Of a stretch of 64,000 nt of DNA, positions 1-55,955 are shown piece after piece; position 1 is the stretch's first letter, and each line of letters opens with the position of its first letter. The notes under the pieces were generated by a model. It ran no database searches. It was not told where the DNA came from and saw only the letters and a program-made list of their open reading frames with translations. The position numbers were made by a program, and so were the translations under genes. Origin of the DNA: Lytechinus pictus (taxonomy: Eukaryota); NCBI RefSeq assembly GCF_037042905.1, contig NC_087250.1, positions 15,998,001 through 16,062,000 on the forward strand. The letters are read 5' to 3'.

Positions 1-97
1 GTCTAAATTTACTCTTTGGAAATTTCATATTTAATCCAAAATACAGTTTCTTCAAATCGCAGCGTAGACGGATCGTGTAGTGTGCGGCTGGCTTTAA

Positions 98-883
98 AGG
101 GATGCTTTGTGCTGAAGATATTTATATCTAAATATTGAATAAAGCAAAAATTCACAGAGCAAAATGCATAAAATTTAATCAAAATTGGATAACAATAATG
201 AAGTGATTGAATTTTAAAGTAAAGCAATATTTTATGAAAACAGTTATATGCGCGTCGTCATAAATATTCATTAGGTAGGCTAATGATATCATATCCACAC
301 TTTCCTTTTTCTTCTGTTGTTACATGAAATCATAATTGTTTCATTTTTTCATACATGTTAATATGATGTGTCTCCGTTATGATGAAATAAGTTGCAGCAA
401 TAAATAACTAATGCACTTAATCAGTTGACAATCCGATTATTTTAGTTCTTGGTAGAAAATATTTGAATTAACCTTATTTCATATAATAAAATACAAAAGA
501 ACAAGCGGGTATATGACATCATCTGGGCGTTGTGGCGTGAGCCTGTAATCCAAGCTGTGGGGAAGTTACAAATTGATGCAGAGGTTCGATCCCTGGTCAC
601 GTCTTTTGGTTGGGGACGTTAAATGTCGGTCCCAGACGTAAGTAATCATATCTGATTGATACACGTCTGACAAAAATCACACACACACACACACACTCAT
701 CTGTCCAACTAATGTATACTCATGAAGACATGCCTAGAACTGTTTCACCGGAATAATGCAAATCTTTAACATTCAATAACTTCGTTGTATGTAACCCGAT
801 TTTGATGAAATTTTCAGCATTTTGCTCTTAGAATTCTACTCTATCTATTGAGATACAAAATATCTTCATCCTGGAGCTTCCCT
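98..883. mobile_element. Non-autonomous TTAA-TSD DNA transposon (Kolobok-like MITE), host of the 7SL-like SINE
   Basis: TTAA at 94-97 and 884-887; imperfect TIRs AGGGATGCT..GCTGAAGATA / TATCTTCATC..AGCTTCCCT; body resembles the copy at 54162-54731 and the fragment at ~33330-33546. Confidence 0.75.
526..696 (+). mobile_element. SINE with 7SL(Alu-domain)-like head, tRNA-type B box, Deu/Nin-like core and (CA)n tail
   Basis: 7-bp TSD TCATCTG at 519-525 and 697-703; head GGCGTTGTGGCGTGAGCCTGTAATCCAAGCT resembles the 7SL 5' end; B box GGTTCGATCCC at 583-593; (CA)n at ~678-696. Confidence 0.75.
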
Positions 884-937
884 TTAATGTGACAGTTATA
901 TCATGCTACGATCATACAAGCGAAACTGAATCCAGAC

Positions 938-20133: not shown

Positions 20134-55955
<35,822 letters not shown>

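Follow-up and report, generated by a model that had tools for sequence, protein, structure and literature searches.

A dispersed repeat family with a probable 7SL RNA head and a Deu-like core in the genome of Lytechinus pictus

A 64,000-nucleotide stretch of the Lytechinus pictus genome (NCBI RefSeq assembly GCF_037042905.1, contig NC_087250.1, positions 15,998,001 to 16,062,000 of the forward strand), hereafter the window, carries near its left end a short insertion that belongs to a large repeat family. Our analysis indicates that this family is, very probably, a chimeric short interspersed element (SINE) headed by a piece of 7SL RNA, the RNA of the signal recognition particle (SRP). Behind the head follow a B box, a core resembling the start of the Deu domain, and a tail made of a stem-loop and a (CA)n run. 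We propose more tentatively, at somewhat less than an even chance, that here a 7SL-derived SINE arose independently in a lineage outside the vertebrates; only the 45-47-nt SRP9/14-binding domain would have been kept, coupled to the Deu core and the stem-loop/(CA)n tail.

Results

The head of the family corresponds to the 5′ end of host 7SL genes

The assembly searched was the window's own (811.7 Mb), with window positions 526-696 as the query, and the copies yielded a 174-nt family consensus, the bounds of the conserved unit being taken from 31 copies aligned together with their flanks. A search of the same assembly with the Rfam Metazoa_SRP model (RF00017) found seven full-length 7SL genes scoring 272-283 bits, and these host genes were used for the comparison in place of the human 7SL sequence on which the original prediction had relied. 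The host 7SL sequence differs from the Rfam consensus. Six of them start with ACCGGGCGTTGTGGCGTGCGCCTGTAATCCAGCTACTTGGAGGT, while a variant gene, L037, starts with ACTGGG...CCAGCTGCTTTGGAAGT. Positions 1-30 of the SINE consensus are identical to L037 at 30 of 30 bases, and over positions 1-45 the agreement extends to 42 of 46 columns against L037 and 38 of 45 against the major 7SL gene type. The SINE and L037 also have two paired changes in common, C to U at position 3 and G to A at position 43, and helix 2 stays closed through the resulting compensatory U3-A43 pair. Judged from these alignments, the first 45 nt derive from the 7SL RNA of the host itself and are nearest to L037, as expected from the earlier proposal of a 7SL-derived 5′ head.

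The covariance model led to the same assignment. Near-consensus copies match RF00017 from model position 1, for example with 31.2 bits (E 8.9e-7) over model positions 1-44, and the predicted pairs of the head fit the RF00017 structure, with helix 2 closed by ACU/AGU and one non-canonical pair inherited from host 7SL. The head contains the UGUAAU turn, so that the anticipated UGUNR-type motif is indeed retained. In all, the retained 7SL piece measures 45-47 nt, starts at the first 7SL nucleotide and comprises the 5′ Alu domain only (helices 2-4 and UGUAAU); local alignment found no 7SL similarity past consensus position 45. A retained 3′ 7SL part was considered as well and rejected: forcing the model to full length (to position 299) gave 34.6 bits (E 2.6e-7), and a gain of only about 3 bits, obtained with several non-canonical pairs, lends such a part no support.

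Could the element instead be a SINE derived from a tRNA, its 5′ end having come to resemble 7SL by accident or through convergence on the requirements of an A box? It does carry a perfect B box, and most Deu SINEs are tRNA-headed, but neither observation accounts for 30 of 30 bases identical to a host 7SL gene together with a predicted SRP fold. ARAGORN found no tRNA in the consensus, in 22 copies or in the window region, and the Rfam tRNA model (RF00005) found nothing at E<=10. From the feature set of tRNA-derived (SINE2) elements only the B box is present, with no tRNA-like head or cloverleaf detected. On sequence grounds we regard the probability of a tRNA-derived head as negligible and this reading as refuted for practical purposes.

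The element is a dispersed, multi-copy retroposon family

The original prediction had set three refuting conditions beforehand: a single-copy sequence, a consensus head closer to a tRNA than to host 7SL, and a family already catalogued as a 7SL-derived SINE. On the second, the consensus head gave a 7SL match, no ARAGORN tRNA and no RF00005 hit. On the first, the sequence proved to be multi-copy. An initial search returned 1275 first-look candidates, 40 of which were scored to give 42 full-length matches of 89-100% identity on many contigs. Exhaustive pattern counts at <=2 mismatches gave 400 matches for a junction 46-mer of the youngest subfamily (consensus 25-70), 1307 for a head 27-mer (consensus 4-30, the seven host 7SL genes among them) and 1490 for a core 27-mer (consensus 91-117), and the reversed-pattern controls were all 0. 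Copies are dispersed over all large contigs, and the 174-nt unit is a short interspersed repeat; SINEBase, as described in PMC3531059, defines a SINE as an interspersed, non-tandem repeat of <1 kb and calls its head from an overlap of 60 nt.

What tells the subfamilies apart is a TA indel in the helix-4 loop and a duplication of the 7 nt GTTCGAG. Among 35 head-core pairs on contig C1 the head-to-core offset was most often 89 (13 pairs) or 94 (11 pairs), followed by 87 and 96 (three pairs each). Thirty copies sampled in order of position were 86.7-100% identical to the consensus, and 13 of them reached >=98%; the family has thus been active for a long time and also very recently. Of 65 copies screened for target-site duplications (TSDs) by a crude exact-match search, 8 had one of 7-12 bp, another 16 had 5-6 bp and the other 41 had none; clear cases include L003 (12 bp) and the 5′-truncated copy L016 (9 bp). 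Dispersal, short TSDs (5-12 bp) and 5′-truncated copies are hallmarks of retroposition mediated by a long interspersed element (LINE). The chimera is also uniform: ten core-bearing places that lacked a perfect head comprised six with a mutated 7SL head, four that were 5′-truncated and none with another head. Thus, no parent tRNA-Deu family, as marked by another head, came to light among these ten sampled places.

Several other arrangements were seen among the copies. A minority form head-to-tail dimers, the second unit starting 1-3 nt after the (CA)n tail of the first (L039:1501-1875 and L025:1314-1671), and further pairs about 190 nt apart occur on contigs C2, C4, C7 and C18. The flanks of the dimers at L039 and L040 are 95% identical, so at least some dimers sit within a larger duplicated unit. 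At three loci of the ACTAGG variant (L054, L005 and L064) an inverted copy of consensus 10-22 precedes the element (GGCGCACGCCACA joined to ACTAGGCG...) and creates a 5′-end hairpin, as expected of snap-back priming or 5′ inversion during retroposition. Finally, L042:362-444 is an old, degenerate, 5′-truncated relative that retains B box, core and tail. By eye and by its weak profile scores (13.5-26.3 bits) it appears far more diverged than the other copies, suggesting that the lineage of the body and tail is much older than the young subfamilies.

The window copy is a discrete insertion into a MITE

The window copy is a 171-bp insert at positions 526-696 whose first bases are GGCGTTGTGGCGTGAGCCTGTAATCCAAGC and which ends in (CA)n; it lies between two copies of TCATCTG, a 7-bp TSD present on both sides. 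Its host is a miniature inverted-repeat transposable element (MITE) with 30-nt terminal inverted repeats (TIRs) at 94-123 and 858-887, which are 80% complementary and bear TTAA at both outer ends. This MITE too belongs to a multi-copy family: there were 1273 first-look candidates, and the 40 that were scored had 92-100% identity. In all three paralogous MITE copies that were fetched, the site is empty: ...GACATCATCAGCCCAC... runs through uninterrupted, with a single copy of the duplicated stretch. Therefore the insert and its 7-bp TSD are real, and the description of a discrete 171-bp insertion into a TTAA MITE holds.

The family consensus starts 4 nt upstream of window position 526 (ACTGGGCG...), and its positions 2-4 fall on the CTG that ends the left TSD, which implies that the window copy is either 5′-truncated by 1-4 nt or was joined to its target through microhomology. 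It is about 94% identical to the consensus (about 6% diverged); in its head, position 1 is T where the consensus has A, and position 19 is A in place of C. A TTTT run at 604-607 occurs in the window copy and has no counterpart in the consensus, which lacks any T4 run. The window copy is an older, probably inactive member of a recently active family.

B box, core and tail

The B box GGTTCGATCCC that had been placed at 583-593 is present in the sequence. In consensus numbering it occupies 62-72, some 50 nt past the A-box-like GTGGCGTGCGCC; both elements were assigned by comparison with promoter consensus sequences. A tRNA origin of the B-box segment is not demonstrable with ARAGORN or RF00005, and the host 7SL genes offer another possible source. 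Six of the seven (L031-L036, on contigs C10 and C1) carry GGTTCGAGTC(C/T) 20-45 nt past the terminator, followed by GGTGT(C/G)(T/A)C and a T run in flanks that are otherwise unrelated; three of these genes have a perfect T-arm-like hairpin, CCTGG TTCGAGT CCAGG. This downstream element appears to be a TFIIIC site of the kind found in yeast U6. The variant gene L037 lacks it.

Such flanks raise the possibility that an internal deletion in a 7SL gene, from about +46 to just past the terminator, brought the downstream B box up to the 5′ domain, the Deu core and the tail being acquired later. SINE variants bearing the duplication align with the 7SL 3′ flank in 25 of 33 columns, and in a shuffle test with the B box held fixed they reached p 0.006-0.012 against L035 and L036. 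However, p<=0.05 was obtained in only 8 of 35 comparisons, none of the 35 survives correction, and non-duplicated variants gave p ~0.5 at the same loci. Moreover, L037, the gene nearest to the SINE head, is the very one without a downstream B box, and B boxes are functionally constrained and can converge. From sequence comparison, a derivation of the B-box segment from the 7SL 3′ flank would be suggestive only, and an internal deletion appears improbable as the source of the chimera.

The same 7SL loci also contain SINEs. On C10, three tandem 7SL genes are each preceded, at a distance of about 33 nt, by an older copy (81-89% identical to the consensus), at L031:1290-1465, L035:1294-1467 and L036:1315-1467, with another at L031:877-1049. 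The C10 copies separate two blocks, GCCCTCAATAnGACAATAAA on the distal side and TCCTTAATTTCGC on the proximal side; since these blocks adjoin each other upstream of L033 and L034, the 7SL genes on C1, the SINE was inserted into a 7SL promoter region, and the unit was subsequently duplicated.

The core (consensus 75-116) was set against the published Deu alignment (Suppl. Fig. S4 of PMC7245038), where it agrees by hand count in 31 of 42 columns with AmnSINE1_HS and in 27 of about 46 with EbuSINE1. By hand comparison the SINE core and the Deu domain have the motif CGTCTTTCGGAT..GACGT.AAA....GTCC in common, and only the first ~42 nt of the domain are present in the SINE. A Deu/Nin-like core had been proposed, and the comparison with the published alignment agrees with it. 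Of the two small stems proposed with it, one stands and one does not: CAGACGT/ACGTCTG forms a tail hairpin in both the minimum free energy (MFE) and centroid folds and is kept in all aligned copies, whereas GGGAC/GTCCC is private to the window copy, the consensus reading GGTGAC...GGTCCC. The (CA)n tail is a feature of the family, whose consensus ends AAAACTCAAATA(CA)n. The features of the window copy and its host MITE are collected in Table 1.

Table 1. Layout of the SINE insertion and its host MITE in the window
Feature	Position	Strand	Evidence
Left part of host TTAA MITE (left TIR 94-123)	94..518	+	Multi-copy family
Left TSD TCATCTG, last 3 bases = consensus 2-4	519..525	+	Single copy at paralogous empty sites
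Putative 7SL-derived head, consensus 1-45: helices 2, 3 and 4, UGUAAU turn, A-box-like GTGGCGTG(A/C)GCC	522..566	+	Host 7SL identity; RF00017 on near-consensus copies
Linker, TTACAAATTGATGCAGA	567..582	+	Weak likeness to 7SL 3′ flank, in duplication-bearing variants only
B box GGTTCGATCCC (consensus GGTTCGAGCCC), ~50 nt past A-box-like element	583..593	+	Sequence; B-box consensus
Core resembling first ~42 nt of Deu domain (Nin-DC region)	596..637	+	Hand comparison, 31/42 columns vs AmnSINE1_HS
3′ stem-loop CAGACGT (633-639) / ACGTCTG (663-669), 23-nt loop; presumed LINE recognition element	633..669	+	MFE and centroid folds
A-rich spacer and (CA)n tail	670..696	+	Sequence
Right TSD TCATCTG	697..703	+	Sequence; empty sites
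Right part of host MITE (right TIR 858-887, TTAA end)	704..887	+	Inverted repeats; paralogues

Candidates for the partner LINE

A profile of the SINE tail, run with nhmmer against 355 kb of sequence, recovered no LINE; it found only SINE copies, the old copy at L042:362-444 and the tails of a second repeat, here called repeat X. The window does hold a LINE on the minus strand (40282-43545) with a 1087-aa open frame that contains Pfam matches to Exo_endo_phos (the apurinic endonuclease, APE, type; E 1.2e-6) and RVT_1 (E 4.9e-36). We rejected it as the partner, because its 3′ end consists of TGAAT-type repeats near 39880-39900, a (TGAAT)n-like tail that differs from that of the SINE.

Repeat X (...GGGTCTGGATGAAAGACTAC...) is abundant, with 914 first-look candidates (for example L025:1880-2010 on the minus strand), and its tail has a homologous stem-loop followed by (AAC)n. 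This 65-nt tail module occurs by itself: in both of the two loci compared, the sequence upstream of it is unrelated. Of 64 SINE copies, 10 have the string AGACTA, which belongs to repeat X, in the 45 nt upstream of the SINE, as against 3 of 64 in the next 100 nt outward (flanks bearing it include those of L012, L010, L008, L024, L005, L020, L039 and L069). In repeat X, a different retroelement tail, with the homologous stem-loop and (AAC)n, occupies the same place as the SINE. Together these flanks suggest a common target preference of the partner LINE lineage. CR1Y_SP is listed as the partner LINE of the sea urchin DeuSINE SINE2-3_SP (PMC3747384), and for the 7SL-headed SINE it would be a lead only.

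Other repeats in the window

At 940-1160 and 39700-39790 the window contains palindromes with long G and C homopolymer arms and inverted ends of the CCAGTGGCGTACCTAGG / CCTAGGTACGC type. Many miRNA models match them at chance level only (<= ~28 bits, far under the gathering scores), and these elements are probably another MITE family.

Discussion

Relation to known SINEs

Reports of 7SL-derived SINEs concern supraprimates, one hagfish and, now, the shrew mole (PMC5786205, PMC7245038, PMC13023118). As described in PMC13023118 and PMC7245038, the published elements have a central deletion of about 183 nt and keep both 7SL ends. Thus Alu, FLAM and B1 (the SINE1 elements of Euarchontoglires) and Urop of the shrew mole likewise begin at the first nucleotide of host 7SL and contain an SRP Alu 5′ domain with a UGUAAU turn and an A-box-like element at the same place as here. 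They differ in having both 7SL ends, A-rich tails and a dependence on L1 (PMC13023118), whereas the 7SL-headed SINE of L. pictus has only the 45-47 nt of the 5′ end, a B box of no demonstrable 7SL origin, and, in addition, the Deu core and the stem-loop/(CA)n tail.

The hagfish element SINE1-1_EBu (PMC7245038) is likewise a non-mammalian, 7SL-headed chimera that took its body and tail from an older non-7SL SINE. It is served by a non-L1, sequence-recognising LINE, as we infer for the present family, and its 2363 copies (quoted in PMC13023118) are of the same order. It differs in containing both 5′ and 3′ 7SL parts and bipartite RTE-derived sequences, in ending with (AAC)n and in making TSDs of roughly 17 bp, in place of the 5′-only head, Deu core, (CA)n tail and 5-12-bp TSDs found here. 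By its description in PMC13023118, the left monomer of tree shrew Tu type II similarly joins a 7SL part to a B-box part of other origin, but it is mammalian, L1-dependent and part of an oligomeric SINE.

The other side of the chimera is closest to the DeuSINE superfamily (AmnSINE1, EbuSINE1/2 and SINE2-3_SP; Nin-DC), the core resembling, by hand count, the start of the Deu domain. DeuSINE heads are derived from tRNA or 5S rRNA, in contrast to the 7SL head proposed here, and the core is only ~42 nt long, as compared with 330 nt in vertebrates, about 120 nt in Nin and about 70 nt for the shortest reported (PMC4824008). Head replacement has a precedent in this superfamily, since AmnSINE1-type elements gained a 5S rRNA head before their tRNA part (PMC4758252). 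Based on literature descriptions and on sequence, a Deu SINE headed by the 7SL 5′ domain would be unlike the published 7SL SINEs.

Such a family might nevertheless have been catalogued already as an echinoderm-type Deu SINE, for example of the SINE2-3_SP lineage, leaving only the recognition of its 7SL head as new. The core is Deu-like, SINE2-3_SP is listed as tRNA-derived with CR1Y_SP as its partner (PMC3747384, PMC4824008), and a 45-nt overlap falls short of the curators' 60-nt rule, so that a 7SL origin may have gone unnoticed. On the other hand, published statements, including those of two papers written by curators, confine 7SL SINEs to supraprimates, hagfish and shrew mole (PMC7245038, PMC13023118, PMC5786205). 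A full-text literature search on 7SL SINEs in sea urchins, echinoderms and invertebrates returned no further case, and a search for literature containing four sequence strings of the element gave nothing relevant, by title or abstract, among the matches listed. The remaining refuting condition, prior cataloguing as a 7SL-derived SINE, therefore found no instance in this literature outside the three groups named, and we consider it doubtful that the family is already catalogued under another label.

Origin and proposed mode of mobilisation

The most likely route to the chimera is a fusion of the 7SL 5′ end to an older Deu SINE, rather than an internal deletion of a 7SL gene: template switching or recombination, the processes argued for the hagfish family (PMC7245038), would have attached the 7SL 5′ end to a Deu-type body that already existed. 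In the mechanism we propose, RNA polymerase III (Pol III) would start at consensus position 1, directed by the A-box-like element within the 7SL piece together with the B box that lies some 50 nt further on, and transcription would end in the flank, since the consensus lacks a T4 terminator. The first 45 nt of the transcript would adopt the fold they have in SRP RNA and would bind SRP9/14, bringing the SINE RNA to ribosomes. A stringent-type LINE reverse transcriptase (CR1- or L2-like) would recognise the 3′ stem-loop and (CA)n and would then copy the SINE RNA into a nicked target.

For the SRP9/14 docking step taken alone, our analysis leans slightly towards its being correct. The step is made more plausible by the report of an association between SRP9/14 and a 46-nt 5′ Alu domain; in the same preprint, by Moldovan, Yin and Moran, this domain is needed for Alu retrotransposition and can promote a round of retrotransposition (PMC11760393). 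It has the same extent (45-47 nt) and is the same structural unit as the retained 7SL piece, although that study concerned a human construct, L1 ORF2p and a poly(A) tract (PMC11760393).

Alternatively, the 7SL head could be a Pol III promoter module only, SRP9/14 having no role and mobilisation proceeding entirely through the 3′ stem-loop and (CA)n, as it does in ordinary Deu SINEs with tRNA heads. A stem-loop tail alone suffices for SINEs mobilised by CR1/L2-type LINEs. The family indeed has a stringent-type tail with a conserved stem-loop, and its B box lies at the right distance from the A-box-like element. For a promoter, however, the first ~25-30 nt would do, whereas the retained piece stops exactly where the closed 5′ domain does (helix 2, ACU...AGU) and keeps the UGUAAU turn, both loops and the compensatory pair; the differences between subfamilies fall in the helix-4 loop and spare the stems; and in human Alu this 46-nt piece constitutes the minimal domain that binds SRP9/14 (PMC11760393). 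We therefore regard a purely promoter-related head as unlikely, though it is the main alternative.

Several observations weigh against the proposed 7SL-headed family and its use of SRP9/14. A promoter-only head is compatible with the same data, and the fold of the whole RNA is no more stable than that of shuffled sequences (z = -0.35). The window copy by itself scores only 9.8 bits (E 1.4) with RF00017, below significance, and a 3-kb scan reported no match; the 7SL question could consequently be settled only through the family consensus. The 7SL overlap of the head (45-47 nt) is shorter than the 60-nt minimum of the SINEBase head rule, and no 3′ 7SL sequence is kept, unlike in every published 7SL SINE. 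Lastly, SINE2-3_SP, a Deu SINE of a sea urchin, is listed as tRNA-headed (PMC3747384), and the present family may already stand in Repbase with a different label.

Significance

Alu, a 7SL-derived SINE, is the most abundant human repeat. Nevertheless, independent origins of such SINEs are few: supraprimates, one hagfish and one shrew mole (PMC13023118, PMC7245038). The central deletion common to the published elements has been read as a structural requirement, and a further origin with the 5′ domain alone would provide a natural test of which 7SL part a SINE needs. It would also illustrate how a 60-nt overlap rule can hide the small-RNA origins of SINE heads. Because the family is young, with many copies 98-100% identical, and possibly still active, and because its inferred partner is not L1, it may offer a tractable non-mammalian system in which to test the SRP9/14-ribosome model of LINE hijacking. 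If the proposal is true, docking at ribosomes through SRP9/14 would be a general, repeatedly evolved trick for capturing a nascent LINE reverse transcriptase, one that would require neither L1 nor poly(A) tails and that could, in nature, do without the 3′ half of the Alu domain.

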